From positions 64,009 to 128,008 of the forward strand of contig DBYN01000004.1 in assembly GCA_002310415.1 (NCBI GenBank): 64,000 bases of DNA, in the 5' to 3' direction. The notes beneath the pieces are model-generated. The model searched no databases and was not told where the DNA came from. It saw nothing but the letters and a program-made list of their open reading frames with translations. The number at the start of each line of letters is the position of its first letter. Within the stretch, counting starts at the first letter, position 1. Below, in pieces: positions 5,509 through 57,913 of this stretch. The stretch is from Alphaproteobacteria bacterium UBA1185. GTDB taxonomy: Bacteria; Pseudomonadota; Alphaproteobacteria; Rs-D84. A program made the translations under genes and the position numbers.

Positions 5509-5793
5509 TTATCTTTGCCCTCTGCCACCATAATTTAATTCACTTAACAGTTGCGCTTGGCAGTCATAAGCATTAAAGAATGCCCTTTTCTTCATTCCAT
5601 GACTTAAACTAGTATGTTTATGTATAACTTCAAAATATTCACTCCAGATATCCGGAGATTCAAATCGTGCCTTTTTATCGGCAAATGCAATAATAATTTT
5701 ATTAATTTGCGCCTGCTTTTCCGAACCATTCGGGATTTCTGCAATTGCCATAATTTGTTTGCTTGTTACAATTTCTATTTCTTTATCGGCCAT
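5509..5793 (-). CDS. Hypothetical small protein (94 aa)
   Basis: The track ORF begins at TTG 5829. ATG at 5793 (MADKEIEIV...) is preceded by GAGGTG. A hairpin with A/T runs lies downstream at about 5447-5482. Confidence 0.5.
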   Translation of the reverse strand: MADKEIEIVTSKQIMAIAEIPNGSEKQAQINKIIIAFADKKARFESPDIWSEYFEVIHKHTSLSHGMKKRAFFNAYDCQAQLLSELNYGGRGQR

Positions 5794-5889
5794 ATTATCA
5801 CCTCTTCTTGCAATACAATTATAAACCAAACCATAAATTTGTCAAGCAAGTTTAAGCATATCCTTAGTATCTGGAATAAATCAGATAAT

Positions 5890-8800
5890 TTATTCACCAC
5901 TTGTCGCGATTACGTCTGTGGCTTCGTATACACCACTTTTGGCGATAATACGTAATGTATGCCCACTGGATAATTGTGTCGGTTCAGACAACGGTTCTTT
6001 TTGGGTCAAATTGATATAATATACACTGCCATTTGAACCTTTTACCGATAACGCTTTGTGTGTTTTATGTTCAAAATCTACCAAGCACATCGGCGCACCC
6101 ATAATAGTTACTTCTTTGGTCAAACAATCTGAACCACATACTACGCCAGGCAAACATAGGCACTCTTCACCATCCCATTCATATTTAACATCACAAACAC
6201 ACCATTCAGCACCAGTAATATATGTACGACCATGATTACCACAGGGGATACATGCGTCCATACCATCATCTGGTGCGACTGTATTCATACCACAAGGTAT
6301 CATACCACTATTATCACTAACTTCTGATTTCAGCCATGCACCACCTGGGCAATAGTTTCCGCTGTAACATTGGGCACGGTCTACCCAATCTTTTGATAAA
6401 TCATAATGAACTATGTATTCTCCAGCAACAGCACACACATAATTATCTTTATCACACACACATTCACCTTCTTTGGAAGCCCACACATACCCTGTTGGAC
6501 AAGTTGTAGAAACACAAGTATTTGTAGCATAACTCCACCCATAACCTTCATCACAAATACATTCTGTTGCACCAGCAGTATCTGTATGCCCGTGTTCACC
6601 ACATGATACACACGCAGACATACCACTCTTTGGCGCAACCGTATTTATATCACACGATGTCGAACCAATCAAACCATTAAGTTCTGATGTTACCCATGCA
6701 CCCCCTGGACAATAATGCCCTGGCTTACATTGACTACAATAATAATCACCTTTTTCGCCATACTCTACATATTCACCAGTATCACAACACAGATAATTAT
6801 CTTTATCACAGATACAACCTTCTTTAGAATTCCACACATACCCGGTTGGACAAGTTGTAGAAACACATTGTCTGCGATAAAAACTCCATGCATACCCCTC
6901 ATCACAAATACATTCTGTTGCACCAGTAGTCTCTGTATGCCCATGTTCACCACATGATACACATGTTGACGACTCTCCCCATGGTTCCGCTGTATTCATA
7001 TCACACAATATTTGGCCAACAGAACCGCTTGCTTCAACTTCTGATTTTTGCCATACACCGCCCGGACAATAATGCCCTGCATCGCATTTGCTGCAACCAT
7101 AATTTGTATAAGCATTACCTTTGCCATCATCGTAGTTTTCATAATATGCATAGCTACCATCATAACAACACACATAATTATCATCATCACAGATACAATG
7201 ACCACTTTTTTCATACCACACATACCCAGTTGGACAATTTGCAGGCAAACACATATTATCTGCTTCACTCCAGCCATAACCTTCATCACAAACACATGCA
7301 TCTGCACCAGCATCTGCATGTCCATGTTCAGGACAAGACATACACGCAGACATACCCTCGTACGGCGCAAATGTATCCACTCCGCACGATGTCATACCAG
7401 TATCACCATTCAATTGTGATATTTCCCATAAACCACCCTCACAATAATTCCCAGGCTCACATTCCCAACATGCATAATAATCACCTTTGTCACCTTTTTT
7501 TCCACCATCAGGTTCATAATGCGCATATTCGCCAACATCACAACATGCATAATTATCTTCATCACAAACACATTCACCTGCTTTGGAATCCCACATATAG
7601 CCAGTTGGACAAGTTGCAGAAATACATGTATTCGTTTTATAACTCCACCCATAACCCTCATTACAACTGCACTCTGTTGCACCAGTGGTATCTGTATATC
7701 CATTCTCACCACAAGGTATACATGCAGACATAGAACCGTCTGGTGCAGCTGTATTTATATCACATGGTATCAAACCAGCATTATCACTAACCTCTGATTT
7801 CAGCCACGCACCACCTGGACAATAGTGTCCGCTGTAACATTGGGCACGATCTGCCCATTCCCAATCATCATAATGAACTATGTACTCACCTGCATTAACA
7901 CATACATAATTATTTTCATCACAGGCACAAGCACTTCCATCCCATACATACCCAGTTGAACAAGGATTAAGAATACAAGCGCTTGCTGTATAATCATAAA
8001 CATACCCATCGTCACAATCACAGGCGGGATGCGACCCAGTTTCACATGAATATAAACCAGGGTTCTCTACTGACAATTCAGAACCACCTGGACAATAATA
8101 ACCATCCAAACAATATGCACAACTTACCATACCAGGTACACCATACGCATATTGCCCAGCGGGGCAATCTATGGTTAATAACCCCATTCGAATATAGAAA
8201 GTTTTATCACCAGAATCTTGTGCACTGACATTAATAGAATAAGTCCAGTTATTATCTTCATCATACCAACCATTAAAGAAATATCCTGGTTTACTGGGAA
8301 TTTGATAAAAAGAATATCCGACCCCTGGTATATAAAAATTAGCCGGCTCACCATTTGTCCACACAGACCCATCTATTTCGTATGTAATATTATAAACCGG
8401 AACATTACATTCGTCATGCGTTGCATTAGCAGCCATACCATTACACTTAAATGTTGTCGCTTGGGTTAAACAACCTGCGCCACTGCACGCAACACATTTT
8501 GTGCCCGAAAAACTTTCGCCAGCCTTGCAGATAACACTGTCTACTGGGGCGCACGATACATGACCATCAAAATATTCCTCAAAGCCTGTTATATATTGTG
8601 ATAATGGTACACCATTTTCTTGATACCACGAACAACTTGTTGCCACACTTGTGTGAGTAAAAGCATCATTAAACTGATTTGTAATTGTTGTCTGCTTATC
8701 AAGGTTGATAAACAATGTTGGAGGTATATAACCCTGCACATTATAACTTCCATTAAACATATCCGCAAACATGTATTCCACCGGTACCCCATATATACCA

Positions 8801-9669
8801 TCAAACAAACTATCAGGAATCTTTCCGATAAAATTATACCCGCAACCACTAAATACACCTGCAAATCGTGGCTGTATCGCCATCAAAGCAGGTGAATTGG
8901 TGGCCAATCCTGTTGTATTACCCAATGTCGGAAATATTGCCCCCAACGAACCAGATATTTCCCTTACTCTGCTTATATAATCAAAAATATGCACAGATTT
9001 ATTTTCATTAACAGAAACAGGATCGTTTTTATCATCAAAATTAAAAACTATAGCGGAACTGCCATCTTGAGCGTACCCCGTCGCATTTCCACCAATACGC
9101 ACAGTAACATCTGTAGCGGACACGTGGTATGTGTGGGAATACACACTATAAAAATAATTCGAAGGCACCTTATTTATGTATTCTACATTGCCATCACCCC
9201 AATCAATCCAAAATTTACCACCCGCACTTAACGAAAAACCAAAATAATCCCCAGTATCTCCTTTTTCATTTATATTGCCAATATTTACTTGGAATTTGTC
9301 CTGTTCCCACATGGCAACGTATGTTGTATTGGTTGTGGGGTTATCTGGCATTGTCCAATGAACCAATGTTTTTGACGCGTTACCGTTCGTTATAGTCTCT
9401 AACCCAACCCTGTCTGTGGAACAAGTGTCTTGATTATTAACCTTGGAATAATGTTCGGAATCACACCAACCCGCAAATATATAATTGTCTTTAATCGGAT
9501 TTGCGGGAACAACCGCATTTTCTGATGTTTCTATTTGATACACAGGGTCGTTACTGCCCGGTAAATGCCCGCCATTTAAATTATACGTAATTGTAACACC
9601 AAATGATGATGTTGCCGACATTACAAACGCAACAATACCGAATAAATATAACTTTATATTATGAAACAT
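5890..9669 (-). CDS. Giant secreted cysteine-rich repeat surface protein, paralog A (1259 aa from ATG 9669)
   Basis: The start was set at MFHNIKLYLFGIVAFVMSATSSFG (signal-peptide-like), which matches the start of paralog B. The N-terminus has Listeria/Bacteroides-type repeat (Flg_new-like) segments (TITYNLNGGHLPG...NYIFAGWCD). The middle holds five tandem Cys-rich modules of about 100 aa. The C-terminal ~70 aa is shared with paralog B. Confidence 0.85.
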   Translation of the reverse strand: MFHNIKLYLFGIVAFVMSATSSFGVTITYNLNGGHLPGSNDPVYQIETSENAVVPANPIKDNYIFAGWCDSEHYSKVNNQDTCSTDRVGLETITNGNASKTLVHWTMPDNPTTNTTYVAMWEQDKFQVNIGNINEKGDTGDYFGFSLSAGGKFWIDWGDGNVEYINKVPSNYFYSVYSHTYHVSATDVTVRIGGNATGYAQDGSSAIVFNFDDKNDPVSVNENKSVHIFDYISRVREISGSLGAIFPTLGNTTGLATNSPALMAIQPRFAGVFSGCGYNFIGKIPDSLFDGIYGVPVEYMFADMFNGSYNVQGYIPPTLFINLDKQTTITNQFNDAFTHTSVATSCSWYQENGVPLSQYITGFEEYFDGHVSCAPVDSVICKAGESFSGTKCVACSGAGCLTQATTFKCNGMAANATHDECNVPVYNITYEIDGSVWTNGEPANFYIPGVGYSFYQIPSKPGYFFNGWYDEDNNWTYSINVSAQDSGDKTFYIRMGLLTIDCPAGQYAYGVPGMVSCAYCLDGYYCPGGSELSVENPGLYSCETGSHPACDCDDGYVYDYTASACILNPCSTGYVWDGSACACDENNYVCVNAGEYIVHYDDWEWADRAQCYSGHYCPGGAWLKSEVSDNAGLIPCDINTAAPDGSMSACIPCGENGYTDTTGATECSCNEGYGWSYKTNTCISATCPTGYMWDSKAGECVCDEDNYACCDVGEYAHYEPDGGKKGDKGDYYACWECEPGNYCEGGLWEISQLNGDTGMTSCGVDTFAPYEGMSACMSCPEHGHADAGADACVCDEGYGWSEADNMCLPANCPTGYVWYEKSGHCICDDDNYVCCYDGSYAYYENYDDGKGNAYTNYGCSKCDAGHYCPGGVWQKSEVEASGSVGQILCDMNTAEPWGESSTCVSCGEHGHTETTGATECICDEGYAWSFYRRQCVSTTCPTGYVWNSKEGCICDKDNYLCCDTGEYVEYGEKGDYYCSQCKPGHYCPGGAWVTSELNGLIGSTSCDINTVAPKSGMSACVSCGEHGHTDTAGATECICDEGYGWSYATNTCVSTTCPTGYVWASKEGECVCDKDNYVCAVAGEYIVHYDLSKDWVDRAQCYSGNYCPGGAWLKSEVSDNSGMIPCGMNTVAPDDGMDACIPCGNHGRTYITGAEWCVCDVKYEWDGEECLCLPGVVCGSDCLTKEVTIMGAPMCLVDFEHKTHKALSVKGSNGSVYYINLTQKEPLSEPTQLSSGHTLRIIAKSGVYEATDVIATSGE
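6140..7970 (-). repeat. Five tandem ~290-bp coding repeats (Cys-rich modules starting C[PS]TGY[VM]W)
   Basis: Protein modules recur with C-x-C-D-x-D-N-Y, GHYCPGG and CGEHGHTDT-GATEC-CDEGYGWS. The first and last modules also share DNA runs (compare 6281-6420 with 7741-7900). Confidence 0.85.
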
Positions 9670-9717
9670 ATTCTTCCCCTTTCCCAGAATTCTGCGGATT
9701 ATATTCACTTCATAAAC

Positions 9718-9746
9718 ATTATAGCAAAAAGGTACCTTTAATTCAA
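9718..9746 (-). promoter_or_regulatory. Candidate hybrid sigma70 promoter TTGAAT-17-TATAAT facing gene A
   Basis: The -10 TATAAT (rc of 9718-9723) lies in the fixed flank. The -35 TTGAAT (rc of 9741-9746) spans the IR/core junction, so it exists only in this core orientation. Confidence 0.4.
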
Positions 9747-9890
9747 CATATTTTTTTATACTTTTACATTTTTTAATGATTTTTGACATTAATTCTCTAA
9801 CTCCCGTGGATTTATTGAGATACAGCGATTTTTATCACTGATATTTTATTGACAATATTTTGTTTTGAACGTAAAAATTAAAGGTACGTT
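9729..9890. promoter_or_regulatory. Invertible DNA switch, copy A: 15-bp IRs (9729-9743, 9876-9890) flanking a 132-bp core (9744-9875)
   Basis: The core equals the reverse complement of 57767-57898 (126/132 identical), while both flanks are co-linear with the twin locus. The IRs are AAGGTACCTTTAATT and AATTAAAGGTACGTT (14/15). Confidence 0.8.
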
Positions 9891-10077
9891 AAAACTTTAT
9901 ACTGCCCGCTCAACCCCACAGATTTCCGGGAGTATTTCCAGACACCAATTCTCCCCTTTTTTTTGGGGGGAGTACAACACAGCCTGGAAGGAGGTAAAAA
10001 ATCCAAATACAAAATAAATTTCGTAAATTGGTATTAAAAAAACTATTGTACCAGACGTGCGGTTCGACAAACTGATA

Positions 10078-10679: not shown

Positions 10680-11239
10680 TATTTTTCTCCTTGTTTATTT
10701 ATGTGTTTTTCTATTGCATCCAAAACTTTGTTCAAAGTCCGATGGATATTTTCATCTTTGGTTTCAACCATAACATCCGCCAAAGCATAAACATCATAGC
10801 GTTCTTTTATCAATTGAGCCAAAATTTGACGACTGTCTGTATTCAATAACTGTGGTCTGGTATGGCGAAAATTTGTTCTTTTTACCAACAGTTCCAAATC
10901 AGCCTTTAACCAAATCGTTAATGATTTCTTTAAAACAATATCACGAACAGTGTCAGTTATAAATGCACCCTCACCCGTAGAAATAACCTTTACCAACGGC
11001 GGTGTTTCCAATAATCTTTCAATAACTTTTTCTTCTACACGACGGAACTCTTTTTCGCCATACATCGCAAAAATATCAACAACACTGCAACCCGCCGCTT
11101 TTTCAATTTCTTTGTCAGAATCAACAAACGGGATACCCAAACGTCGTGCCAAAGCACGCCCCACACTGGTCTTACCCGCGCCCATCAAACCAACCATTAC
11201 AATTGGTTTATTTAATTCTGTCTGTGTTTTAATTCTCAT
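10679..11239 (-). CDS. aroK: Shikimate kinase
   Basis: P-loop GLMGAGKTSVGRALARRLGIPFVDSD. The track start at 11287 is a TTG that gives a hydrophobic extension. ATG 11239 (MRIKTQ...) is preferred and ATG 11257 is also possible; neither has a clear SD. Confidence 0.8.
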   Translation of the reverse strand: MRIKTQTELNKPIVMVGLMGAGKTSVGRALARRLGIPFVDSDKEIEKAAGCSVVDIFAMYGEKEFRRVEEKVIERLLETPPLVKVISTGEGAFITDTVRDIVLKKSLTIWLKADLELLVKRTNFRHTRPQLLNTDSRQILAQLIKERYDVYALADVMVETKDENIHRTLNKVLDAIEKHINKQGEK

Positions 11240-11283
11240 GATTTTATATTTTATCATAAATATTAAAACAGACAATAAAAAAT

Positions 11284-12348
11284 TCAATCCAACGCCGCCA
11301 ATCTTTCCAATTGATCAGCCGAAATCAGCGCATCTATCATTTCGTCCAGACCTTCGCCACCCGCCAAAATATCGTCCAATTTATACAAAGTCAATTTAAT
11401 ACGATGATCTGTTACACGTTGTTCTGGAAAATTATAAGTTCTGATTTTTTCACTTCTGTCACCAGAACCAACCATACTGCGACGCGATGCATTTGATGCA
11501 TTCATTTGTTCACTGCGTTGCTTTTCATATAAACGTGAACGTAACACAGCCATCGCAGTTGCTTTGTTTTGTAATTGCGAACGTTCATTTTGACACGTTA
11601 CAACTATACCCGTTGGAAAATGAGTAATACGAATCGCAGAATCTGTTTTATTAACGTGTTGACCACCTGCCCCAGATGCACGGAAAATATCTATACGAAT
11701 ATCTTTGTCATCAATCACAACATCAATATCTTTTGCCTCTGGCATAACAGCGACAGATGCAGCAGATGTATGAATACGACCAGCCGCTTCTGTTTCAGGC
11801 ACGCGTTGCACACGATGAATACCAGATTCAAATTTTAATCTGGCATACACACCAATCCCATCAACTTTGAAAATGATTTCTTTGTATCCGCGCAACGAAG
11901 TTGCATTTTCTTCGATGATTTCAATTTTCCATCCATGACGAAGAGCATAAGATTGATACTGTCTGAATAAATCACCAGCAAACAAAGCCGATTCTTCCCC
12001 ACCGACACCTGCACGAATTTCTACAATCGCACTGTTATCATCTGCACTATCACGTGGCAACAAAGCAATCTGCAAATCGCGCTCTAAATCCGGCAAAGCA
12101 TGTTTTAATTCGTTTAATTGTTCTTCGGCTATACCCTTTAATTCAGGGTCAGAAAGCATTTCATTTGCGTCTTTGATTCCCTGCTCTGTTTGCAGATATT
12201 TATCTATTAATGGTAATACTTCGGATAATTGCGAATATTCTTTGGATAATCGTGTCAATTCATCACCAGATATTTCACCAGAATTCATTTTTGATTCAAT
12301 GTCTTTGGCACGCGATTTTATGTCCAATAATTTATCTTTGATAATCAT
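11284..12348 (-). CDS. prfA: Peptide chain release factor 1
   Basis: GGQ motif ([19 protein letters not shown]) and a PxT-type tripeptide ([15 protein letters not shown]) indicate RF1. The stop is TGA at 11284-11286. Confidence 0.95.
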
Positions 12349-13854: not shown

Positions 13855-15015
13855 TTACCATCTTAAACCGACGCGGAATTCATCGCCCCAATCAGCAATC
13901 TTTTGACCACCGACCGAACAATTCAACGCATCAAATCCTTTTTCAACCTGTGCCTTTTTAATCAAGACACCAGAAACCACACCACCAACTGTTCCCAACA
14001 CAACACCAGCGGTCAAATCAGATGCCAAACGAACACCATTAAATGAACCATCTGCATTTTTCCAAACACTGCGGTCTGAATCAATTTTTTTGAAAAATTC
14101 AGACACCCTGTTATAAGCCCCAGAAACATTAGCATCGTTACCATCACCATTACCCGCGGTTGAACCACCAGATTGATTACGCCACGTTGCATCACTATCA
14201 CCAGCCGAACCACTGAAACCATTATTATCTTTGACTTCAACTTTAACACCTGATGATTCTGTTCCACACATTTCATCTATCTTATCTTTGTATTGTTCCA
14301 ACCCAAGTTTTACAATTTCTTCTTTTGAAACATCTTTATCTTTAACTTGTATACTAACATTTTGCAATATTTCTGTTTTGGTATCAGAACATGTAACAAT
14401 TATACTTCCACGCCAATAACAGTTACCTTCCGTACATTTGTCTGGTTCTTTCTTGGGTTCTTCTTTTTTATCACAGTGACATGCAGCATATGCCTTACCC
14501 CCAATTAGTTTTACAACACCTTGGCTTTTGCGCAACATGCCATTTGCTTTGCTCGAATCAATGACATAAGGCACACATTTATCACCATCGCTTATTTTAC
14601 AAGTATCATCACATGCATTTGTACATATATTTTCTGCTTCTTGTTTGGTATGACAATAGCCACTAATAAGAGCGTTTTGCTGTTTTTGTGCGTCGTCCTT
14701 ATTATGAAATACCAACGGCATTAACTTACCCGCTTCACAACTTTGTGCAGCACAACGTAAACTTCCATTTTTAAATTGTACACATTTACCGTTTGTACCC
14801 GATTCAGGCGTACAATTGTCACCCACCTTTCCACAATTCGACTTAAAATCTTTCTCTTTAAATTCTGGCAAAGCGCATACATCATCCGTCATATACCCAG
14901 TCAAAGCATAAGACAAAGCCTTTGAACCAAACGTAGTCGTTATTCCCCATGCGGACTTTGATACAAAACCACCACAGACAAGCATAACTGATAAAGCAGA
15001 TACAAATTTTTTCAT
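13855..15015 (-). CDS. Secreted Cys-rich hypothetical protein with C-terminal hydrophobic segment
   Basis: Signal-like N-terminus MKKFVSALSVMLVCGGFVSKSAWG, many Cys residues, and a Gly/Val-rich hydrophobic stretch (AGVVLGTVGGVVSGVLI) near the C-terminus. An SD (GGAAAGGAAG) lies upstream. Confidence 0.6.
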   Translation of the reverse strand: MKKFVSALSVMLVCGGFVSKSAWGITTTFGSKALSYALTGYMTDDVCALPEFKEKDFKSNCGKVGDNCTPESGTNGKCVQFKNGSLRCAAQSCEAGKLMPLVFHNKDDAQKQQNALISGYCHTKQEAENICTNACDDTCKISDGDKCVPYVIDSSKANGMLRKSQGVVKLIGGKAYAACHCDKKEEPKKEPDKCTEGNCYWRGSIIVTCSDTKTEILQNVSIQVKDKDVSKEEIVKLGLEQYKDKIDEMCGTESSGVKVEVKDNNGFSGSAGDSDATWRNQSGGSTAGNGDGNDANVSGAYNRVSEFFKKIDSDRSVWKNADGSFNGVRLASDLTAGVVLGTVGGVVSGVLIKKAQVEKGFDALNCSVGGQKIADWGDEFRVGLRW

Positions 15016-18042: not shown

Positions 18043-18076
18043 AAAATACCCCGAAATTTTTCGGGGTGTTTTTTTA
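18041..18076. terminator. Bidirectional terminator between rnhA and the ankyrin gene
   Basis: ACCCCGAAA/TTTCGGGGT hairpin flanked by A and T runs. Confidence 0.8.
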
Positions 18077-18535
18077 TTTTGTTTTGACATTGGCATCTAA
18101 TAGTTTTTGTTTCTTATCATTATAACGTGTCAAAAGATGCTCATATAGATACCCTTGTACTATTGCCGACCCATACTTTCCTGCTATATCAAAAACATTT
18201 TTATCAGCTTTATTCACTATATCTAAATCTATGTCGCAATGTGTTAATAAATAATATTCTACATCATTATGATTATTTTCTACAGCAAACATTATTGCTG
18301 TATCTCCTTTGATATTTTGTAAATTTGCATTTGCCCCGTTTTTAATGCAATATTCAACTGTGGGTAAATCTCCATACCTAGCAGCAAACATTAAGCCTGT
18401 CATTCCTGATTTATCTTGTGCATTTATATCCGATAAACTTTTTAAAAAATTTCTCATTCCAACTGTATCTGCATACTCAAATACTGTACTAAACGAAAGT
18501 GGAAGATATTTACTTTTTGCATTTTTTTTCGTCAT
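18074..18535 (-). CDS. Ankyrin-repeat protein
   Basis: ANK consensus segments (GMTGLMFAARYGDLPTVEYCIKNGANANLQNIKGDTAIMFAVENNH). Confidence 0.8.
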   Translation of the reverse strand: MTKKNAKSKYLPLSFSTVFEYADTVGMRNFLKSLSDINAQDKSGMTGLMFAARYGDLPTVEYCIKNGANANLQNIKGDTAIMFAVENNHNDVEYYLLTHCDIDLDIVNKADKNVFDIAGKYGSAIVQGYLYEHLLTRYNDKKQKLLDANVKTK

Positions 18536-31516: not shown

Positions 31517-32179
31517 TTATTTGTGTCTTAATCTACGAAGCCTCAAATTTCTCATACGTTGTTTTTCTTTCTTTTTGGCTTGAAAATTGTTATATGCTAT
31601 TTGTGCAGTTAGTTCGTCTATCTTTTGTTTTAGATTGGCATTTTCTTGTTCTGATTTTGCCAAATTGGCTTTCAATGCGGTAAATGGTGCTTCTTTCAAC
31701 AATTCGATTACTTCTTTTGGGGCTCCGCTAAATAAAGCAATCGTCAATGGTGTACGACCATCTTTGGCTTTTGCGTTTACATCGGCGCCTTTATCAATTA
31801 ATAATTCAATTACTTCTTTTGAGGCTTCGTTAGCACAAGCAAACATCAATGGTGTCCAACCATAATTGTTTTTTGCGTTTACATTGGCATCTTTAGCAAT
31901 TAATAATTCAATTACTTCTTTTGAGGCTTTGTTAGCACAAGCAAACATCAATGGTGTCCGACCACCATTGGCTTTTGCGTTTACTTTGGCACCTTTAGCA
32001 ATTAATAATTCGATTACTTCTTTTCGTGCTTCGTGATATAAAGCAAACACCAATGGTGTCCAACCATCATTGTCTGTTGCGTTTACATCGGCACCATCCT
32101 GGATGGCTTGGTTTATTTCTGATATTGAACCCTTTCTAATGGCAGTCAATAAATAACGTTCTTTAACTGTCCATACCAT
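31517..32179 (-). CDS. Ankyrin-repeat protein with coiled-coil and basic tail
   Basis: Near-identical 33-aa ANK units (KEVIELLIAKGAKVNAKANGGRTPLMFACAN...). The C-terminus has a coiled coil and ends in RMRNLRLRRLRHK. Confidence 0.85.
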   Translation of the reverse strand: MVWTVKERYLLTAIRKGSISEINQAIQDGADVNATDNDGWTPLVFALYHEARKEVIELLIAKGAKVNAKANGGRTPLMFACANKASKEVIELLIAKDANVNAKNNYGWTPLMFACANEASKEVIELLIDKGADVNAKAKDGRTPLTIALFSGAPKEVIELLKEAPFTALKANLAKSEQENANLKQKIDELTAQIAYNNFQAKKKEKQRMRNLRLRRLRHK

Positions 32180-32302: not shown

Positions 32303-33994
32303 TTATATACCTTTCTCTATGCAAGCCTGACCACAAGTATCTTCACATTCGCTTGAATCATCAAAAACATAAGTTTTAACCCAATCTGTATTTGCGCCAT
32401 CGAATTTACACCAACATTGTTCCCCTGTTGTTGTTATTGAACGATTAAGTTCAGCATTAACTTGGATGGTATCCAAAGATGTACATTTTGCCATACCGTG
32501 GTACTTTGTACCGTCGGCATATATAACAGCCCAACCACCATAAGGTATATCAGAACATTGACTGGAATCCACATTACCAAATCTGTAATTACCATTACCT
32601 TGCAAATCAACCTTGGCAAAACAAGAACCTTTGTAAGTGCGAAAATTTGCATTTGGGGTTTTCGGTTGATTACTTGTTAAAAATTCTTCTTTTTCAGTGA
32701 AATCTTTGGCACAATCCTCTTCGCACCACGTTTCACATCCATCAGCATCTTTATATGCCTGGTAAGAATATTCCCAATTGGCATTTGCACCGGCTGTTTT
32801 GCACCAACAATATTTTCCAGTTCCAGAACGATTAAAATCGTTATTATTTAAAATACTTTCAGTTGCCATACATTTAGCAAAACCTGTATAGGTGGCACCA
32901 TTACCAAGTGTTATACTCCAACCCCCAAAAGGAACATCTTTACATAAATTGCTGTTTGATAAAGTATACGAGTTGTTTTTGTTTTGAAAGGCTGTAAAAC
33001 ATCTACCCGCTTTATCGCGCACTTTTGAATTAGAGTTAATAATTTCATCCTGGACATCAGACACTTCTTCTTGCCCGCCAAGAAATGTTTCGGCATATAA
33101 ATCATCATAATACGCTATAAACTCACGAGCCCGCCCCTGCGTATGTATCGCAATCAAAAGACCATTTTCATCAAAAATGGGACCTCCTGAATTACCGCCC
33201 CATGATTGACACGAAGTTTTATCAACCGATGCTTTGTCACCAGACGATTCAAAATCAGACAAATGACAATGAAAAGAGCCTTTTAATTGGTCTGAATCAT
33301 TTGGAAATATTTTTGTAAATAACTTAGTCTCACCAATTTCTTTTATAAAATTGTCTTTGTTAATTTTTTTATTAGACAATGCCTTCTTGAACTCATCCCT
33401 TGCAGCCAGTATTTGTTTATCACTCATAATAGGCAAAGCACCATAACCGACAACTTCAAAATAACCAGAATACATATCGCCAGTGGTTACAAATGGGACA
33501 CTTTCTGCATATTCATCTGGTATTTTATACATAGCGGAATCATTACCCTGCTTTCCCATACCACTATACATAAACTCTACCTGCATTTCAGTACCGTCTT
33601 GCAATCTTACAGATATAGGATCTGTTCCGTTATCATCTACACAATGTCTTGCGGTGTACACATATAATTTACCATCATTTGGATTTTTAACTATGGTTCC
33701 TGTGCAATAATTACCACCCTTATCATACAAAGCAACCACAGCGTTATAAGGTGATTTTTGTTTTTGTTCATCTGTTAAATAACAACGTCTGTCAATTGTA
33801 TAATCATTGTAATGCGCACCATTATTTTGACAACGGTCAGAAAAACTTCCTGTTCGCACACCAGAAGCATGTTCAAAAGCATTCTCTTTTATTGCTTTGT
33901 TTACCGCGGTTTTAACATAATCATAACCATTTACCCCAAAAGACGCACCAGGTAAGCACGCGATCAACAAAGATACCCAAGACACTTTTGACAT
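32303..33994 (-). CDS. Secreted trypsin-like (S1) serine protease with two C-terminal Cys/Trp-rich modules
   Basis: Signal-like MSKVSWVSLLIACLPGASFG, His box YTARHCV, and Ser box GGNSGGPIF. The track start at 33997 is a TTG; the ATG at 33994 was used. Confidence 0.8.
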   Translation of the reverse strand: MSKVSWVSLLIACLPGASFGVNGYDYVKTAVNKAIKENAFEHASGVRTGSFSDRCQNNGAHYNDYTIDRRCYLTDEQKQKSPYNAVVALYDKGGNYCTGTIVKNPNDGKLYVYTARHCVDDNGTDPISVRLQDGTEMQVEFMYSGMGKQGNDSAMYKIPDEYAESVPFVTTGDMYSGYFEVVGYGALPIMSDKQILAARDEFKKALSNKKINKDNFIKEIGETKLFTKIFPNDSDQLKGSFHCHLSDFESSGDKASVDKTSCQSWGGNSGGPIFDENGLLIAIHTQGRAREFIAYYDDLYAETFLGGQEEVSDVQDEIINSNSKVRDKAGRCFTAFQNKNNSYTLSNSNLCKDVPFGGWSITLGNGATYTGFAKCMATESILNNNDFNRSGTGKYCWCKTAGANANWEYSYQAYKDADGCETWCEEDCAKDFTEKEEFLTSNQPKTPNANFRTYKGSCFAKVDLQGNGNYRFGNVDSSQCSDIPYGGWAVIYADGTKYHGMAKCTSLDTIQVNAELNRSITTTGEQCWCKFDGANTDWVKTYVFDDSSECEDTCGQACIEKGI

Positions 33995-34039
33995 CAAAAA
34001 AAACTTATACAGGCTTTCGATTTAAACGGTTACTTGCAA

Positions 34040-36454: not shown

Positions 36455-38101
36455 ATGACAAATTCTTTTCCAGACGAATGGATAACATTAAACGATGTCG
36501 TATTGCTTATTGCATACAACGAAGTGTTAAGAACCAAAATTATGGATACCTTAATAGATTTACACAGCAAAGGCCAACATCCTGATTGGATAAAACAAAC
36601 TCATGTCAACAGATACAAATTTAACAAAAAATATCTGGAAGCCTTTTGTAAAGAATATGGTTTTGATTTGGCGGCACCAATAAAAAGACACGCTGTCGAT
36701 TATAAAAGCAAAAATTGGTTGTGCACCAAAGAATTAAGACAATATCTTCCAGGGTCAGAAAGTCAAATTCTGACAATATTACAGAAACTGCAATCACAAA
36801 TGCCTGATGCTATCAAAGAAAAACAAAATGGTCCTGTTGTACGTTTGTGCCTGCACAAAAAGTATATCGATACCGTAAAATCTATTATAAACAAAGAAAC
36901 AGCCAAACAAATCCAAAACGTAGACACCAATACAATATACGCAAATTGTTTTATGGAAAAAACCGGTCCAGACGAATGGATTAGTTTAACATATGTCAGA
37001 AATTTGATTTTAAACGGTCTTGAAGAACGCGACAGATTACATGATTCTTTGATGGCTTTGTATAACACGCAACAATACCCAAATTGGATACAGCGCGCAA
37101 CCAAAAAGCAATACATGTTCAACAAAAAGTATTTACCAGAATTCTGCATGATGTATTCATTTGAAATAAAAGATACACCTGATAGTAATATAAAATGGTT
37201 AAGAATTGTAGATTTACAACATTTAATAAGTAAATCTTGTCAAGATTTCTCCAAAACTCTAACCGCCGCACTACAAGACCTGCATAGCAGACACATATTT
37301 TCTAACTGGGTATGTCGCCCAAGCGAAAGCAGATATTATTTAAACGAAAAATATTTGATACCTTTTACAAAAATGTACAACTTTCGTTTAATTTGTCAGG
37401 ACACCAGAACCGAAGAATGGTTATCTGCCGCCGAAATATGGCAACAAACAAAATGTATAGAATTTAATAAAATCAGCCGATTATTAAAAAAACACCAATC
37501 CGATATGCCCGAATGGATACAAACAAAAAGAAAAAAACAATTACCTTGTCTGTGTTTACATCGCGACCATGTTTCAGAATTTTGCAAAATTGCCGGTATA
37601 CAATTATGCAAAGATACAAACGCAAAAACATCTGAGTGGTTTGCAACATCTGAATACAGATTATTTCTAAAAGATTTTGACGCAAATACACAAACGAACG
37701 CACTGGAAACAGCATTTACAAACATCGCAAAAACACATCCAGATTGGATTCAATATAAAACATGCAAAAACGGTCAAGAAAGATTATGTCTACACAAAAA
37801 TCACGTTGCTGATTTTTGTACCGAAACTGGTTTTATATGCAACAACAAGAAAACGGAACAATGGTTGGATGTTCGCGAACTTGGTTTAATGACACACATA
37901 TCACCTGCTAAAATATTGGTCACATTACAAAACAACCAAAAAGCAAACCCAGAAATTATCCAAATCAGACGTCTTAGTTCAAGACCTGTTTTATGTCTGC
38001 ACCGCGACCATGTCACCAAAATAACAGAATGGATGCAAAATTTAGATAAAAAAAGTATTGCTATGATAATTGTAAAAGACAGCGGATACAAATTGAAATA
38101 A
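36455..38101 (+). CDS. Orphan protein built of seven ~65-80-aa repeats
   Basis: Each unit has an [ED]-W-[ILF] motif near its start and P-[DNE]-[WAI]-I-[KQ] near its end (PDWIKQ, PDAIKE, PNWIQR, SNWVCR, PEWIQT, PDWIQY, PEIIQI). Two tail subtypes alternate: [KE]KYL..F (FNKKYL, LNEKYL) or LCLH+xH. Confidence 0.7.
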   Translation: MTNSFPDEWITLNDVVLLIAYNEVLRTKIMDTLIDLHSKGQHPDWIKQTHVNRYKFNKKYLEAFCKEYGFDLAAPIKRHAVDYKSKNWLCTKELRQYLPGSESQILTILQKLQSQMPDAIKEKQNGPVVRLCLHKKYIDTVKSIINKETAKQIQNVDTNTIYANCFMEKTGPDEWISLTYVRNLILNGLEERDRLHDSLMALYNTQQYPNWIQRATKKQYMFNKKYLPEFCMMYSFEIKDTPDSNIKWLRIVDLQHLISKSCQDFSKTLTAALQDLHSRHIFSNWVCRPSESRYYLNEKYLIPFTKMYNFRLICQDTRTEEWLSAAEIWQQTKCIEFNKISRLLKKHQSDMPEWIQTKRKKQLPCLCLHRDHVSEFCKIAGIQLCKDTNAKTSEWFATSEYRLFLKDFDANTQTNALETAFTNIAKTHPDWIQYKTCKNGQERLCLHKNHVADFCTETGFICNNKKTEQWLDVRELGLMTHISPAKILVTLQNNQKANPEIIQIRRLSSRPVLCLHRDHVTKITEWMQNLDKKSIAMIIVKDSGYKLK

Positions 38102-45946: not shown

Positions 45947-47470
45947 CTAGAATCTCATATTGATACCAACACGTATTCCCATCGATTTGTATACAGAATT
46001 AACTTCTTTTTTATCTTCAATCGCCCAACCAGCCGATTGCCAACTGGTATAGATATCTTGATATTCTTCATACACATCAACATCTATATCATTATCAGTC
46101 AACAAACCATCATCATACGCATCTAAAATCTCATTTATTGCATCTAACTCTGCACTATACCAAGCAGGACTTAAATACGTTTTTGCCTTTGCATCGGACA
46201 CTTTGTAATAATCCAAAGTAAAGCCCAATGACAACGAAGTTGCATCACTTATCGCAGTAACCCAACCCGCATTCATAGCAAAATGATAAGCATCGCCAAA
46301 TCCACCCTTGTCTTCTACACTGGTTGGGTGCGCCCAATCAACACGATATGGTTGATCGCCAGTTGATTTATAAATTGGCAAACCAAATTCAATACCACCA
46401 GTCAACAAATTATCTTTATTTATTTGATATTCCGCATCCAAAGCCAAATAAGGTCCAGCCCATTCAGTTTCATATTTATGCGATGTACTTGGCTGTTCAT
46501 AATAATATGTTCCACCCATATTCAAACGCGGCCAACCAGTATTATTTGGAAAAACATACTGATCATAGTCATCCATCACAACATCACCATTTTCATCCGT
46601 CTGAAAACCACCATACCCCTTCGGATTAGCAAGTGGATAACCATCTTCGGTCCAAAATTCCACCAATGGCCCACATTGTACTTCGTCACCAAATTGCAAA
46701 CAATTCACAAAACTTGCAGAATCCAAAACATCCACAGCCAAACCATAATTCTTTTCGGTTGTTAATTCATGTTTAAAATAACGATAACCAATTGACGGCG
46801 TAATCTTCGCGCGTCCCCATGTAAAGAAATCAGTTAAACCAAACGCGATATTAAATCCCATCTGTTTACCATCTTTACTGGTTCCAACAGACATAGCCGG
46901 GGTCCCCACAATAGTATCTTCATATTGCACGGTACCACCAACATCAAGCACCGGCATTTCAACAACACTCCACACTGCATATTCAGACGAAATATCATCG
47001 TCAATCATTGGTGAATCACCAAATTGCAGTCCATATTTAAAGCCCGCCTTTAATTGCATCTTTGTATTATCACCAAAATAATAAACACCACGCGCATCAA
47101 AAACATTCCACGCCAAATTATCATAATGCAACTTTGACCCCGCAGCATTCATATCAAATTCCCACTTACCAATTTCATGCGACAACCCCGCATCCAAAAC
47201 AAAACCCTGTTTATTTGAAGTTTGTTGTGCAGTCTTTTTATTTTGCGCATTCTGTTTTTGATTTCCCATCTGGTTTTCCATACCGTATGGGTTGTTTCCG
47301 TACCCACGCTGTGCACCATATCCGTACGAATTATAATAACCGGCACGCGTATATCTTTGCTGTGGATTTTGATATAAATTACCATTATAATAAGTTCCAA
47401 CAGCACCAGCAACCGCAGGGAACAAAGCCATTACAGCCATACTGCTAATGATACGAAATACATTTTTCAT
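45947..47470 (-). CDS. Outer-membrane beta-barrel protein with Tyr/Gly/Asn/Gln-rich N-terminal region
   Basis: The start was reset to ATG 47470 (MKNVFRIISSMAVMALFPAVAGA, SD GAAAGGAA), because the track TTG start at 47629 lies inside tRNA-Leu. The C-terminus GIRVGINMRF is typical of an outer-membrane protein. Confidence 0.72.
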   Translation of the reverse strand: MKNVFRIISSMAVMALFPAVAGAVGTYYNGNLYQNPQQRYTRAGYYNSYGYGAQRGYGNNPYGMENQMGNQKQNAQNKKTAQQTSNKQGFVLDAGLSHEIGKWEFDMNAAGSKLHYDNLAWNVFDARGVYYFGDNTKMQLKAGFKYGLQFGDSPMIDDDISSEYAVWSVVEMPVLDVGGTVQYEDTIVGTPAMSVGTSKDGKQMGFNIAFGLTDFFTWGRAKITPSIGYRYFKHELTTEKNYGLAVDVLDSASFVNCLQFGDEVQCGPLVEFWTEDGYPLANPKGYGGFQTDENGDVVMDDYDQYVFPNNTGWPRLNMGGTYYYEQPSTSHKYETEWAGPYLALDAEYQINKDNLLTGGIEFGLPIYKSTGDQPYRVDWAHPTSVEDKGGFGDAYHFAMNAGWVTAISDATSLSLGFTLDYYKVSDAKAKTYLSPAWYSAELDAINEILDAYDDGLLTDNDIDVDVYEEYQDIYTSWQSAGWAIEDKKEVNSVYKSMGIRVGINMRF

Positions 47471-47562
47471 GATTATTCCTTTCTTGATATATAGAGCATT
47501 ATAACATAAAATAGTTGAAAAAAAAATACTTTTATAATATATTTTGAAAAAAATTTCTTTAT

Positions 47563-47647
47563 GTGGCCATGGCGAAATTGGTAGACGCGCAGCACTAAGG
47601 ATGCTGTGGAGCAATCCTTGGGGGTTCAATTCCCCCTGGCCACACCA
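47563..47647 (+). tRNA. tRNA-Leu (anticodon AAG), type II with long variable arm, CCA encoded
   Basis: Hand fold: acceptor GTGGCCA/TGGCCAC, D arm GCG-AAATTGGTAGA-CGC, anticodon stem CAGCA/TGCTG with loop C-T-A-A-G-G-A, variable arm TGGAGCAATCCTTG, T arm GGGGG-TTCAATT-CCCCC. Length 85 nt. Confidence 0.88.
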
Positions 47648-47755: not shown

Positions 47756-50746
47756 ATGAAAAGGATTACTCTGTTTTTAACTACGTGCCTTGGTCTGTCT
47801 GTATTTCAGACGGCATTATGTGCCGATACGGATTCTGTTCGCGCTGCTACGAAACGTGGTGCAACAAATACTGTCCAAACAAAATCTGTTTCAACCCGTT
47901 CAACAAATACATCATCAAAAAATAATTTGGAACATTCTGAAAACACACGCACATCGACACAGAGTGCCCGAACGGCCACGAATGTACAAAGCCGAACCCC
48001 AACAACACAAAAACAAACGGTAAAGCAACGCGTCTCTGTACCATCCAGACAGGCAAAGACCGTTACTACCCGCACGCAATCTGTTAAACCGACAAATTCT
48101 GTGGTATCACGCACCGCGTCAACAAAAAAGTCAGATACAAAACAAAAATCGACTGCAACCCGCAAAGCGGTAAACAAACAACCAAAACATGTCGGTCGTG
48201 CAACAACATTAAACGAAGAAAAAATCCAAGAAATAAAATCCAAAGATTATTCGAAATGCAGAACTGTATATTGGGAATGTATGGATGAATTTTGTGCTAA
48301 CAAAGATACAAATTTACGTCGTTGCGCATGTTCGAATCGAATTCATGAATTTGACGGTGTCAAAGAAAACTTGTCCAACGCGGAAGAAAAGATGTTTGAA
48401 TTTAATCAACGCTTGCTTATGGTCAATATGGACAAAGAAGACGTTACCGCAATTTCCACCGCAACCGAAGGTGAAGACGCTTCGACAAGCACCGAAGATA
48501 AATCTGATTCGGAATTATTGTTACAAAAGATAACAAGTGCATTGAATAATTCCGATGATTCCAAGATTAAAAATAATTTATCTTCTATTTCGTTAGATTT
48601 AGACATTGAAAACGCGTGGGATACTGTTGATTCCATTGGCGGAATTGCAACATCTGCAAAAACTGGTCTGGCTTTGTATGATGCTGCCCAACCTGTGTGT
48701 CTGGAAATGGCAAAGGAAGTTTGTTCCGAAGAAGAAATGGTCATAACACGCAAAAGTTATGAATTGGCAATCCAACAAGATTGCAACACTGTTAAATCTG
48801 CATACAATTCTAAATACAACGAAACAATCGGAAAAGTTCGCGAAAGTAGCGCTTTGTTGGATATGGCGCGTTTAAACGCGTACCAGCAAAGAAATTCAGA
48901 TGATTTGTTAACCTGTAAACGTAAAATTTTAGATAAATTATCAGATTCTTCGATATGTGGGGAAAAACTTTACAAATGTTTGGATGTCACTGGTCAATAT
49001 ATAAATCCTGCTGATGGGTCTGTATTTTTATCTGAGAATTTGTCTAATTTAACAACATTAATAACGAAACCAACGGATGCCAACGCGAAATGGTCTACTG
49101 TTACAAGCAACGCCCCGTTTGTGTCATTTTTAAATTCTAAACGTGATGCGTTGGAAATCGCGACAGAAAAATGCCAAGATATGGCTGACACGATATGGAA
49201 AGAATTTTTGGATGATGCTTTGGCACAAATTAAATTGGCACAAAATAATAAATTGGAAGAAATTCGTCGTAACTGTACAAAATTGGTAACAGATTGCAAG
49301 AAAGAACAATCACAAAACATCAAAGAATTCGACCAAGATGCATTATTAACGTTTAATGTGTTGGCTGATGCAACTGTGAATGAAATGTGTCGCGATATAA
49401 CGAATGCATGCACTGCATTAATGAATACAACATTTGAGGATGATACATGGGCATCTGGTATAACTGGGGTAGAGGCAGACATATCTTATGAAACGATATT
49501 GGAAACATGTATGGATGTTGGGCGTGTATGTCTGACGCAAAAATGCGCTGGTACATCTGATAATTTCGCATTATGCAAAGAAACCCTTGCCCCCACCCGG
49601 CAAGCGATATTGAAACGTGAATATTGTTGGACCGAGGTTGAAAATTGCGTAAAACAAGCAACAAATTTAAACGCAATTTATGATTACTATACATGGATGC
49701 AAAGTGCAACATTTGGTGATACTCCAAATTGGGCAATCCCAACATTTGATAAACAATATAAGAAAACTTGTGATACAGAAACAGAACCCGAAGGTTCCGC
49801 ATCCCCCGATAAAATAGCATGTTTAATAACACATAAAATCTGGGGTGATTGTAAATTAAATGATATCACCAACACAGAAACTGGCATATTTACCCAGTCG
49901 GGCTGTATATTACCAAAAACCGCCTATAAAACTACTGGCGATTGTAACAACACCATCCCAATCACGAATAATGAAGATACATTATTGGGCATTTTGGCTG
50001 ACGGCACCAGTAACCCGGATTGTGACCTAAACCGGTGCGACATTGGATACGAATATTATCCCAACTATGCCGATCATGACAAATACCCACAATGCTTAAT
50101 TTGTGCACAAAAAATACAGACCACTGACGGCACCCCCACAGACCGCAATAATATCATAGAGGTTACCGAAAATATCACAAACTATTGTAAAAATGGTTGC
50201 GAACGAAAGGATCATTATAGAAATTGTTGTGCCTATACAAACACTTTGTTTGAAGGGTCAAAAGTGGATAACGAAGTTTGTGTTCCAGATTTAGAAGAAT
50301 CACCAGAATACAACGCCCACCATATCCAAACGGTTACTTGTAACGGTGAAGACAAATATTATTGTCCCAATCATGACTCCACTAATCCAAAAAACATAAA
50401 ATTATATTGCATATTACCAACCGATAAAGAGCCCACGTATGATACGGAAACCGATTCTATAACATGTCCCGATGGTTATTGGGTGTTAGTCGACGACCAC
50501 GGCAATTATTTTAATCCTGCAACCAAGGATCTTGATGACAAATGGCAACCAATATCTGAAAAAGGTATGATCATGTCCTATCAACCATCAAAAACAGATC
50601 AACCATGTATAATCATGTTTATTCCAGACCAGCAAGAATGGAATGCTGTGGACCAGCAAGCCTATCCCCTAACCGAATGCACTGTCAACATTAATCCAAA
50701 AAACAGAACCGAAAACAATCATTTTAAAATTAGATTCTATAAATAA
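47756..50746 (+). CDS. Large secreted Cys-rich protein (996 aa) with Thr/Ser/Lys/Arg-rich N-terminal region
   Basis: Signal peptide MKRITLFLTTCLGLSVFQTALCA. A low-complexity region of about 130 aa is followed by an ~830-aa Cys-rich body. No family recognised. Confidence 0.7.
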   Translation: MKRITLFLTTCLGLSVFQTALCADTDSVRAATKRGATNTVQTKSVSTRSTNTSSKNNLEHSENTRTSTQSARTATNVQSRTPTTQKQTVKQRVSVPSRQAKTVTTRTQSVKPTNSVVSRTASTKKSDTKQKSTATRKAVNKQPKHVGRATTLNEEKIQEIKSKDYSKCRTVYWECMDEFCANKDTNLRRCACSNRIHEFDGVKENLSNAEEKMFEFNQRLLMVNMDKEDVTAISTATEGEDASTSTEDKSDSELLLQKITSALNNSDDSKIKNNLSSISLDLDIENAWDTVDSIGGIATSAKTGLALYDAAQPVCLEMAKEVCSEEEMVITRKSYELAIQQDCNTVKSAYNSKYNETIGKVRESSALLDMARLNAYQQRNSDDLLTCKRKILDKLSDSSICGEKLYKCLDVTGQYINPADGSVFLSENLSNLTTLITKPTDANAKWSTVTSNAPFVSFLNSKRDALEIATEKCQDMADTIWKEFLDDALAQIKLAQNNKLEEIRRNCTKLVTDCKKEQSQNIKEFDQDALLTFNVLADATVNEMCRDITNACTALMNTTFEDDTWASGITGVEADISYETILETCMDVGRVCLTQKCAGTSDNFALCKETLAPTRQAILKREYCWTEVENCVKQATNLNAIYDYYTWMQSATFGDTPNWAIPTFDKQYKKTCDTETEPEGSASPDKIACLITHKIWGDCKLNDITNTETGIFTQSGCILPKTAYKTTGDCNNTIPITNNEDTLLGILADGTSNPDCDLNRCDIGYEYYPNYADHDKYPQCLICAQKIQTTDGTPTDRNNIIEVTENITNYCKNGCERKDHYRNCCAYTNTLFEGSKVDNEVCVPDLEESPEYNAHHIQTVTCNGEDKYYCPNHDSTNPKNIKLYCILPTDKEPTYDTETDSITCPDGYWVLVDDHGNYFNPATKDLDDKWQPISEKGMIMSYQPSKTDQPCIIMFIPDQQEWNAVDQQAYPLTECTVNINPKNRTENNHFKIRFYK

Positions 50747-57691: not shown

Positions 57692-57751
57692 ATTCTTCCC
57701 CTTTCCTAAGAATTCTGCGGATTATATTCACTTCATAAACATTAAAGCAAA

Positions 57752-57913
57752 AAGGTACCTTTAATTTTTACGTTCAAAACAAAAAATCGTCAATAAAATA
57801 TCAGCGATAAAAATCGCTGTATCTCAATAAATCCGCGGGATTTAGAGAATTAATGTCAAAAATCATTAAAAAATATAAAAGTATAAAAAAATATGTTGAA
57901 TTAAAGGTACCTT
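57752..57913. promoter_or_regulatory. Invertible DNA switch, copy B: perfect 15-bp IRs (57752-57766, 57899-57913) flanking a 132-bp core (57767-57898)
   Basis: The core is the reverse complement of 9744-9875 (126/132), and the flanks are co-linear with copy A. The core contains hairpin CAGCGAT-AAAA-ATCGCTG and palindrome AAATCC-GCG-GGATTT. Confidence 0.8.
57765..57793 (-). promoter_or_regulatory. Candidate core-borne promoter TTGACG-17-TAAAAA facing gene B
   Basis: The -35 is the rc of 57788-57793 and the -10 is the rc of 57765-57770. The same element (TTGACA, 9849-9877) points away from gene A at copy A. The -10 is weak because it lacks the final T. Confidence 0.35.

Follow-up and report, generated by a model that had tools for sequence, protein, structure and literature searches.

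In Anaplasma (Rickettsiales), the msp2/p44 genes encode alphaproteobacterial surface proteins whose conserved 5′ and 3′ ends guide the recombination that replaces their centers. The babA, babB, and babC genes of Helicobacter pylori have near-identical N- and C-terminal regions around a divergent middle, and intragenomic gene conversion between them generates chimeras; a bab locus is occupied by different paralogues across strains, and expression is phase-variable (PMC4552749). In Mycoplasma penetrans, the mpl (P35) genes are scattered on the chromosome and each has its own invertible promoter (PMC2268961), while in Bacteroides fragilis a single recombinase with its gene elsewhere, the serine invertase Mpi, flips many dispersed promoters, each lying between short inverted repeats (PMC4747536). 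Here, we describe two genes, A and B, in a 64-kb window of Alphaproteobacteria bacterium UBA1185 (the whole stretch of contig DBYN01000004.1 that was analyzed, 64,000 nucleotides, to which all coordinates refer). They probably belong to a modular family of Sec-exported, phase-variable, adhesin-like surface proteins, the ends of which are exchanged by recombination.

As we picture the family, each member would comprise a 5′ expression module, a variable passenger, and a C-terminal domain (CTD) of ~75 residues that belongs to no known family. The expression module would consist of a hairpin, a 162-bp invertible promoter element, a leader of 59-60 nt, the signal peptide MFHNIKLYLF..., and usually a Flg_new repeat; passengers would be assembled from PKD-like and DUF285-like repeats, Flg_new, Cys-rich Ephrin-receptor-like repeats, and a segment that we call the X region. 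Related contigs from other samples carry L numbers (L001-L006 and L087-L092) and database proteins carry P numbers.

Layout of genes A and B

The two genes and the parts that they encode are as follows (aa, amino acids).

5890-9669, minus strand: gene A, 1259 aa, with its ATG at 9669 and its stop codon at 5890-5892
54791-57691, minus strand: gene B, 966 aa
9598-9669, minus strand: signal peptide of A, MFHNIKLYLFGIVAFVMSATSSFG, without a lipobox Cys
57620-57691, minus strand: signal peptide of B, MFHNIKLYLFSIFVFMTSITSSFG, a second allele, 99% identical in nucleotides to that of L001/P0030
9475-9543, minus strand (equal to 57497-57565): exact run of 69 nt shared by A and B, codons 43-65, inside Flg_new; a putative gene-conversion tract
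5909-5973, minus strand (equal to 54807-54871): exact run of 65 nt shared by A and B, covering the last strands of the CTD
6130-8094, minus strand: A-specific passenger of Cys-rich repeats, with YCPGG six times and C[PS]TGY five times
55028-55651, minus strand: B-specific X region, aa 681-888, which takes in the last part of the second Flg_new segment
5893-6129, minus strand: CTD of A, aa 1181-1259, predicted to be all-beta, with a conserved Cys pair and ending ...ATSGE
54794-55027, minus strand: CTD of B, aa 889-966, with a second mid-CTD haplotype (AANP-SEP) and the tip ...SSGE

In A, the signal peptide is followed by Flg_new, a WGDG/PKD-like domain with two repeats, a Cys linker, a further Flg_new, six Cys-rich units, and the CTD; B has the same order, with seven repeats of ~31 aa behind the WGDG/PKD-like domain and the X region in front of the CTD. 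By its sequence, the 5′ end of both genes encodes a Sec-type signal peptide; this ends ...TSSFG and is followed by VTITY, and the lipobox Cys of a lipoprotein is absent from both. The Flg_new-like repeat that a sequence-only reading of this DNA had noticed in the two genes was recognized by Pfam (PF09479; 47.7 bits in A and 69.0 bits in B, cut-off 27), in two stretches of each protein, and TIGR02543 (Listeria-Bacteroides repeat) also matched both.

At the DNA level, blastn aligned A with B in two blocks only, 479 nt at the 5′ end (76% identity) and 209 nt at the 3′ end (85%), for which an ungapped recount gave 80% and 87%, respectively. In the proteins, aa 1-165 are 74% identical and the final 70 residues 85% identical, and the close similarity that had been claimed for these two regions therefore holds. 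The exact runs of 69 and 65 nt lie where they had been reported, and additional exact runs of 38 and 30 nt were found at the 5′ end. When alignment columns were shuffled 100,000 times at the given local identity, the 69-nt run was reached in three shuffles and the 65-nt run in 60, both thus being longer than chance would give; 56 nt of the 65-nt run are also identical in L001 and L090. Homology to A or B always ends no more than ~5 nt from the stop codon.

Recombination at the conserved ends

Whether the likeness of the ends exceeds uniform divergence was a check named beforehand. In Nei-Gojobori counts of A against B over 20-codon windows, the proportion of synonymous differences (pS) was 0.14-0.16 across codons 41-70 and 0.14 over the last 20 codons, and it rose to 0.69-1.02 over codons 71-134, where the nonsynonymous proportion (pN) was still only 0.12-0.22. 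Synonymous divergence is therefore patchy rather than uniform. A permutation test restricted to same-residue codons of A and B that have synonymous alternatives gave longest identical-codon runs of 23 at the 5′ end (p = 0.001) and 21 at the 3′ end (p = 0.03); in residues 170-345 of A, the same-codon fraction was 0.48 and there was no long run (p = 0.28). Patchiness of this kind indicates that the ends are a mosaic of recently shared and old tracts, which is the signature of gene conversion, and such a signature is explained neither by a single duplication nor by selection at the protein level alone.

Contigs from other samples show the same blocks in other combinations. L001, which encodes P0030, has a B-like 5′ end (92.7% in nucleotides) and an A-like 3′ end (97.5%), and the nearest neighbor at the 5′ end differs by segment. 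The 3′ blocks were aligned for A, B, L001, L090, and L091.

Signal-peptide codons 1-25: the nearest neighbor is L005 for A (93%) and L001 for B (99%)
Codons 26-70: A and B are nearest to each other (91%)
Codons 71-125: L004 and L005 are nearest to each other (85%)
Mid-CTD: two haplotypes, A and L001 (83/84) and B, L090, and L091 (81/81), with 65/84 between the groups
56 nt after the mid-CTD: identical in A, B, L090, and L001
CTD tip: A-type in A, L090, and L091 (19/19); B differs
Downstream flank: common to A and L091 only (111/120)
Passenger: L090 falls with B (97.7% over 1229 nt) and L091 falls with L001

The mid-CTD haplotypes are thus distributed independently of passenger and flank, and all four combinations of passenger, mid-CTD haplotype, and flank imply that at least two exchanges took place. 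L091 joins the downstream flank of locus A to a P0030-like body, so that locus A, as defined by that flank, holds another family member in one strain. Database protein P0038 is 100% identical to B over 340 aa and yet has the A-type tip IATSGE; it also has nine clustered differences at its 5′ edge. Bodies that are 97.7-100% identical but carry different end haplotypes point to recent exchange. The ends, having been reassorted in other samples, do not diverge in step with the middles. The proposal of the sequence-only reading that ongoing gene conversion or recombination homogenizes the ends is borne out by patchy pS, by the codon-run tests, and by the reassorted blocks; together with the run-length shuffles, these results amount to a mosaic of the bab kind, beyond what uniform divergence would leave.

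The upstream module and its invertible element

The shared 5′ module reaches upstream of the start codon in both genes.

9729-9890, minus strand: invertible element of locus A, with 15-nt inverted repeats at 9729-9743 and 9876-9890
57752-57913, minus strand: invertible element of locus B, in the opposite orientation, 95.7% identical to that of A once inverted
9670-9728, minus strand: 5′ leader of A, 59 nt, with the ribosome-binding site AAAGGGGAAG
57692-57751, minus strand: 5′ leader of B, 60 nt
9891-9995, minus strand: conserved stretch upstream of switch A, with a CTCCCC/GGGGAG hairpin
57914-58011, minus strand: conserved stretch upstream of switch B

The inverted repeats, AATTAAAGGTAC(C/G)TT, have a GGTACC core; at 15 nt each, they bound 132 nt and give an element of 162 bp in total. 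Matches to AATTAAAGGTAC(C/G)TT occur at only four sites in the window, a number that none of 100 shuffles reached. In the A orientation, a promoter-like TTGAAT-17 nt-TGcTATAAT points into gene A; in the B orientation, TTGACG-18 nt-AAAAAT inside the element points at gene B. As in an inverton, repeats flank a promoter-like segment and both orientations are seen, between A and B and also among relatives, where L004 and L006 have the A-type and L001 and L005 the B-type. The suggestion that flip switches mark a variable surface-antigen family is in keeping with these inversions.

A 75-nt BLAST segment spanning the leader and the proximal inverted repeat (upstream positions 388-461) shows 96% identity between A and B; identity is 97% for the leader alone and 83% for the ~120 nt beyond the element. 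Noncoding regulatory DNA is thus more alike than the coding 5′ end, which fits either concerted evolution or a strong constraint on recombinase and promoter sites. At switch B, the CTCCCC/GGGGAG arms lie at 57973-57991 and 58013-58031, the second passing the end of the conserved stretch; the hairpin may possibly act as an insulator against read-through.

The list of open reading frames (ORFs) adds 40 codons (MSKIIKKCKSIKKYVELKVPF...) to A, up to 9789 (window 9670-9789). This extension is artefactual, as no stop codon interrupts the frame across the leader and the invertible element; translation begins at the ATG at 9669, which follows the AAAGGGGAAG site. Database protein P0034 shows the same artefactual N-terminal extension.

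A second type of switch, with the repeats AAACGTAC(G/C)TTTAA, lies upstream of P0033 and P0050 (L087 7850-8000; L002 1-141; L088 1-141). In L087 and L002, it carries AAACGTACGTTTAA, which may resemble the published Mpi repeat consensus. Two contigs of one sample begin with the same identical 141-mer at this switch, which marks a branch in the k = 141 assembly graph and hence a repeat common to two loci. In L001, a 205-aa serine recombinase (10983-11600; PF00239 Resolvase plus HTH_7) is encoded 9 kb from the family gene and is a candidate for the invertase.

Shared and specific parts of the middles

The middles had been called completely different, which overstated the case: A aa 166-525 is homologous to, and collinear with, B aa 162-703, at 31-36% identity (36% for A 166-345 against B 162-380, and 31% for A 346-525 against B 541-703), and only A aa 526-1180 and B aa 704-888 are without detectable similarity to each other. 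The error lies in the extent of the unrelated middle and leaves the concept unaffected. BLASTP likeness continues from the N-terminus as far as A aa 343 and B aa 377 (48% identity, E 8e-91), and a second match joins A 269-523 to B 440-703 (31%, E 1e-21).

Both proteins contain the PKD-like domain with the FWIDWGDG motif, followed by the ~31-aa repeats with the motif IPxxLF, two copies in A and seven in B. Neither A nor B matched the PF03382 (DUF285) or PKD models directly, PF03382 not even at E = 1, and a possible assignment comes through relatives. Among 31 relatives carrying the WGDG-plus-repeat module, PKD_4 and PKD were matched by four and three, respectively, and PF03382 by two (E 1e-15); the latter, P0035 and P0036, which also match PKD_4, are similar to the B repeat region at E 2e-23. 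For B aa 119-560, AlphaFold gave a confident model (pLDDT 82.8, pTM 0.87), in which a beta-sandwich leads into a long repeat region that has little regular secondary structure; Foldseek found no significant neighbor of this model in the PDB.

The A-specific passenger, aa 526-1180, consists of six Cys-rich units of ~120 aa (11% Cys) with a weak similarity to Ephrin_rec_like (E 1e-4) that falls just under the Pfam cut-off. Its units are ~46% identical as protein, and Tandem Repeats Finder detected no DNA-level tandem array in A; in B, it detected one 93-nt array of two copies. The X region of B is distant kin of the bodies of three short members, P0032, P0033, and P0034 (23% identity, E 7e-14). 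A search of PHROGs returned no match for A or B, leaving a phage tail-fiber origin without support.

Further members and truncated copies

Relatives were sought with the first 380 aa of B. Many of the proteins found have only the WGDG-plus-repeat module in common with it, and few share the ends. P0030 (563 aa) combines the signal peptide of B and an A-like tail with a different body; in P0032, P0033, and P0034 (338-378 aa), that signal peptide and Flg_new precede an X region distantly similar to that of B and a diverged tail; in P0004, the signal peptide is fused directly to the WGDG module; and P0050 (1287 aa) carries the tail behind three WGDG-plus-repeat modules. Shared ends around differing bodies describe a modular family in which passengers are built from a small set of blocks between constant ends.

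Neither tblastn nor blastn found a partial copy in the window. Elsewhere, the copy in L090 begins abruptly at B aa 561, after unrelated DNA with an in-frame stop (L090 1-65), and that in L091 begins at about P0030 aa 412, after unrelated DNA with stops (L091 1-171); both are truncated at the 5′ side and retain the conserved 3′ end. L092 424-724 has an A-like 3′ end (98% in nucleotides) with a foreign downstream flank, the homology starting at the contig edge. These copies, on contigs of 724-1453 nt, may be promoterless donor cassettes, pseudogenes, or assembly ends.

Two further searches yielded little. An N-terminal profile run against a 5.8-billion-protein index returned one weak Flg_new protein and missed known members, making it uninformative, and a scan of JGI metagenomes with a 23-nt leader pattern gave no matches.

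The C-terminal domain

A CTD profile built from six tails was used in an exhaustive search of 1.84 billion representative proteins, among which it matched only 23. About 19 of these matches end within a few residues of the C-terminus (e.g., 211-283 of 285 and 1217-1285 of 1287), and another three cover short repeats in the interior of a protein. The matched proteins start with signal peptides and differ in their bodies, which are unrelated, one group being made of LPxGYTxLEYIESTGTQYIDTG repeats. Conserved within the domain are the Cys pair, YYINL, LRI, and, in most sequences, a terminal acidic residue. Against the 5.8-billion-protein index, the CTD alone recovered only a fragment of A.

An extreme C-terminal position behind unrelated passengers is what would be expected of a sorting or anchoring domain, and we infer that the CTD may be one. 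The idea in the sequence-only reading that the ends could be secretion or anchoring modules is supported, with a caveat: there is a Sec signal peptide at one end and a tail at the extreme C-terminus at the other, but the tail matches no known sorting family. Structure prediction and hidden Markov model searches of the C-terminal 70 aa against known sorting domains gave no family match, and searches against Pfam, NCBIfam, and PDB sequences gave nothing below E ~0.01 and nothing consistent.

Two known tail types were considered and rejected. For the type IX CTD (Por_Secre_tail), Pfam and NCBIfam gave no match to any of 17 CTD sequences, even with E values of up to 1 allowed, and the host is an alphaproteobacterium. 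The classical autotransporter (type Va) would require an autotransporter domain, of which there is none; the tail has ~75 aa, against ~250-300 aa for the barrel, and its C-terminal residue is Glu and not aromatic.

In one CTD-bearing protein, P0046, the gene adjoins an rRNA operon (L089 5231-5300) and has, within the 5′ end of its ORF, an (AC)n repeat of ~16 units that encodes THTHTH; the THTHTH stretch recurs in P0044 and P0052. From its sequence, the repeat is a candidate switch for slipped-strand phase variation, in a branch of the tail-domain family other than that of A and B.

Weighing the explanations

On the explanation that we favor, homologous recombination or gene conversion would begin in the conserved ends, homogenizing them and moving passengers between expression loci. 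A site-specific invertase encoded outside the window would flip each promoter independently, such that each cell would show a different subset of the proteins. The CTD would most likely be required for outer-membrane translocation or cell-surface anchoring.

Several observations weigh against this explanation. No recombinase gene is encoded in the 64-kb window. A promoter-like site faces the gene in both orientations of the element, so that either might be the ON state; the evidence for inversion comes from comparisons between loci and between samples. Because the relatives' contigs are from other samples, orthologues and paralogues are not always separable. For the CTD, AlphaFold predicted six beta-strands at low confidence (pLDDT 56.6), Foldseek with this model found no match at E < 0.7 and no structural neighbor, and a sorting or anchoring role is deduced solely from the position and distribution of the domain. 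Finally, a scan of 185,579 GTDB species representatives with the N-terminal profile found no family member, and close relatives of the host are among those representatives. The last point may have a technical cause: L001, L002, L003, and L088 begin 38-160 nt upstream of a family gene, the assemblies breaking at or inside the switch, and such breaks may explain the absence of the family from the GTDB scan.

A more specific version of the favored explanation is a plug-in system for surface display, in which the CTD would be a new outer-membrane sorting or anchoring signal, the invertible 5′ module would control expression, and passengers, perhaps with promoterless partial copies among them, would move from one fixed expression locus to another through recombination in the two conserved ends. 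We would apply it to genome-reduced gut Alphaproteobacteria and their relatives, and hold it as a tentative idea with the balance somewhat against it.

Alternatively, A and B could be the expression sites of a silent-cassette system of the Anaplasma msp2 or Borrelia vlsE type, with promoterless donors elsewhere. The 5′-truncated copies in L090 and L091, with their conserved 3′ ends, and the A-like 3′ end in L092 are what such donors might look like, although contigs this short could equally hold pseudogenes or ends of the assembly graph. Both genes in the window, moreover, are full length with a switch of their own, and no partial copy lies beside them; we regard a silent-cassette system as unlikely. 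One ancient duplication, followed by replacement or expansion of the middle through domain insertion and with no continuing exchange, would account for the collinearity of A and B as far as the second Flg_new, and for differences that consist mostly of the number of repeats and a single inserted block. However, ends of a single age should show uniform synonymous divergence, which they do not, and strain variants with almost or wholly identical bodies should not carry different end haplotypes; this history is quite unlikely. Purifying selection alone on the signal peptide plus Flg_new and on the tail, without recombination between copies, has in its favor that the conserved blocks coincide with recognizable protein modules and that homology stops so close to the stop codon. 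It is very unlikely to suffice, given that near-zero synonymous change lies beside saturated synonymous sites in the same conserved domain, that the noncoding leader and switch are more alike (96%) than the coding 5′ end (76%), and that passenger, mid-CTD haplotype, and flank are incompatible by the four-gamete test. Metagenome assemblies do break at these repeats, but collapsed or chimeric repeats mimicking shared ends are scarcely credible here, where the ends in the window are 76-87% identical rather than identical, the flanks are unique housekeeping genes (mscL, polA, rmuC), and the architecture recurs in independent samples.

Host and neighboring genes

The host is a Candidatus Enterousia-like alphaproteobacterium of the order Rs-D84. 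Its UvrA is 89-92% identical to that of alphaproteobacterial metagenome-assembled genomes (MAGs) from sheep and buffalo rumen and 82-85% identical to that of Candidatus Enterousia MAGs; one Enterousia-like genome is a circular MAG of 958,618 bp. Genomes of Rs-D84 are smaller than ~1 Mb and lack most biosynthesis, and these bacteria have been proposed to be obligate symbionts or parasites of other cells within animal guts (PMC12306168).

Housekeeping genes in the window include leuS, prfA, uvrA, polA, rmuC, def, and fmt, among others, and outer-membrane proteins, a subtilase, and ankyrin-repeat proteins are also encoded. Ankyrin-repeat proteins, which are typical of host-associated or intracellular bacteria, were recognized by eye in the translations of 18074-18535 and 31517-32179. 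Three more secreted Cys-rich proteins are encoded at 47756-50746, 13855-15015, and 32303-33997. Two of them (996 and 386 aa) have no Pfam match, and the other is a trypsin-like protease that carries Cys-rich repeats at its C-terminus. The switch, leader, and tail domain common to A and B are absent from all three. Directly downstream of A, at 5509-5829, is a 106-aa ORF with a strong promoter-like site of its own (TTGACA-16 nt-TATAAT), which is kept beside the family gene in L091 and has no PHROGs match. A 548-aa protein at 36455-38101 has several internal repeats of ~110 aa (EWISL/EWLS...PDWIQ...LCLHK) and no Pfam match. A predicted tRNA-Leu on the plus strand (47563-47647) overlaps the TTG-started 5′ end of a 560-aa ORF for a Pom-family outer-membrane protein on the minus strand (45947-47629), the true start of which is probably the internal methionine of MKNVFRIISS....

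About 6.7 kb of the 64-kb window is given over to two large proteins with individually switchable promoters, which suggests that variable adhesion, or the evasion either of phage or of immunity, is central to the lifestyle of this bacterium. Rs-D84/Candidatus Enterousia is a widespread uncultured lineage of gut and rumen for which dependence on partner cells has been proposed (PMC12306168). Assemblies break at genes of the A/B type on account of the shared 5′ and 3′ modules, which may explain their absence from MAG collections and matters when gut MAGs are mined for surface proteins. The tail domain, an unannotated family that marks such proteins, could define a new surface-sorting route; the significance would grow if the tail turned out to be such a sorting signal or if there were silent donor cassettes.

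Comparison with known systems

No single described system resembles A and B in all respects. For the layout with conserved ends, bab and similar Hop pairs are the closest analogue. The Bab C-terminus is, however, a large outer-membrane barrel, whereas that of A and B is a predicted all-beta domain of ~75 aa; bab phase variation occurs through a CT dinucleotide tract and that of A and B through an invertible promoter; and, unlike bab, the passengers of A and B are assembled from several shuffled module types. In Anaplasma msp2, there is one expression site and there are many promoterless pseudogene donors, whereas A and B are two full genes with switches of their own and donors that are at best hinted at.

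For the 5′ module, the closest analogues are the vsp and vpma genes of Mycoplasma (M. bovis and M. agalactiae), with their conserved 5′ untranslated region and signal peptide and their variable repetitive bodies, and, for one switch per gene at scattered loci, mpl of M. penetrans together with the Mpi promoters of B. fragilis. The Mycoplasma families share with the A/B host a reduced genome, but their products are lipoproteins of wall-less monoderms and have no conserved CTD; A and B have no lipobox, belong to a diderm, and do have one. The small serine recombinase near the family gene in L001 recalls Mpi. Bacteroides, though, is of a different phylum, its switches mostly drive polysaccharide operons, and the window of the A/B host encodes no recombinase. 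The type IX CTDs of Bacteroidota are likewise beta-rich, ~70-100 aa long, and placed at the extreme C-terminus of Sec-exported proteins with unrelated bodies; the likeness is one of analogy only, and no type IX components were seen.

The strategy itself is well known, its principle being familiar from pathogens, and A and B represent a new variant of it. What is new is the lineage, the tail domain, and the way in which an invertible promoter for each gene is combined with the exchange, through both ends, of cassettes that hold multi-module passengers.

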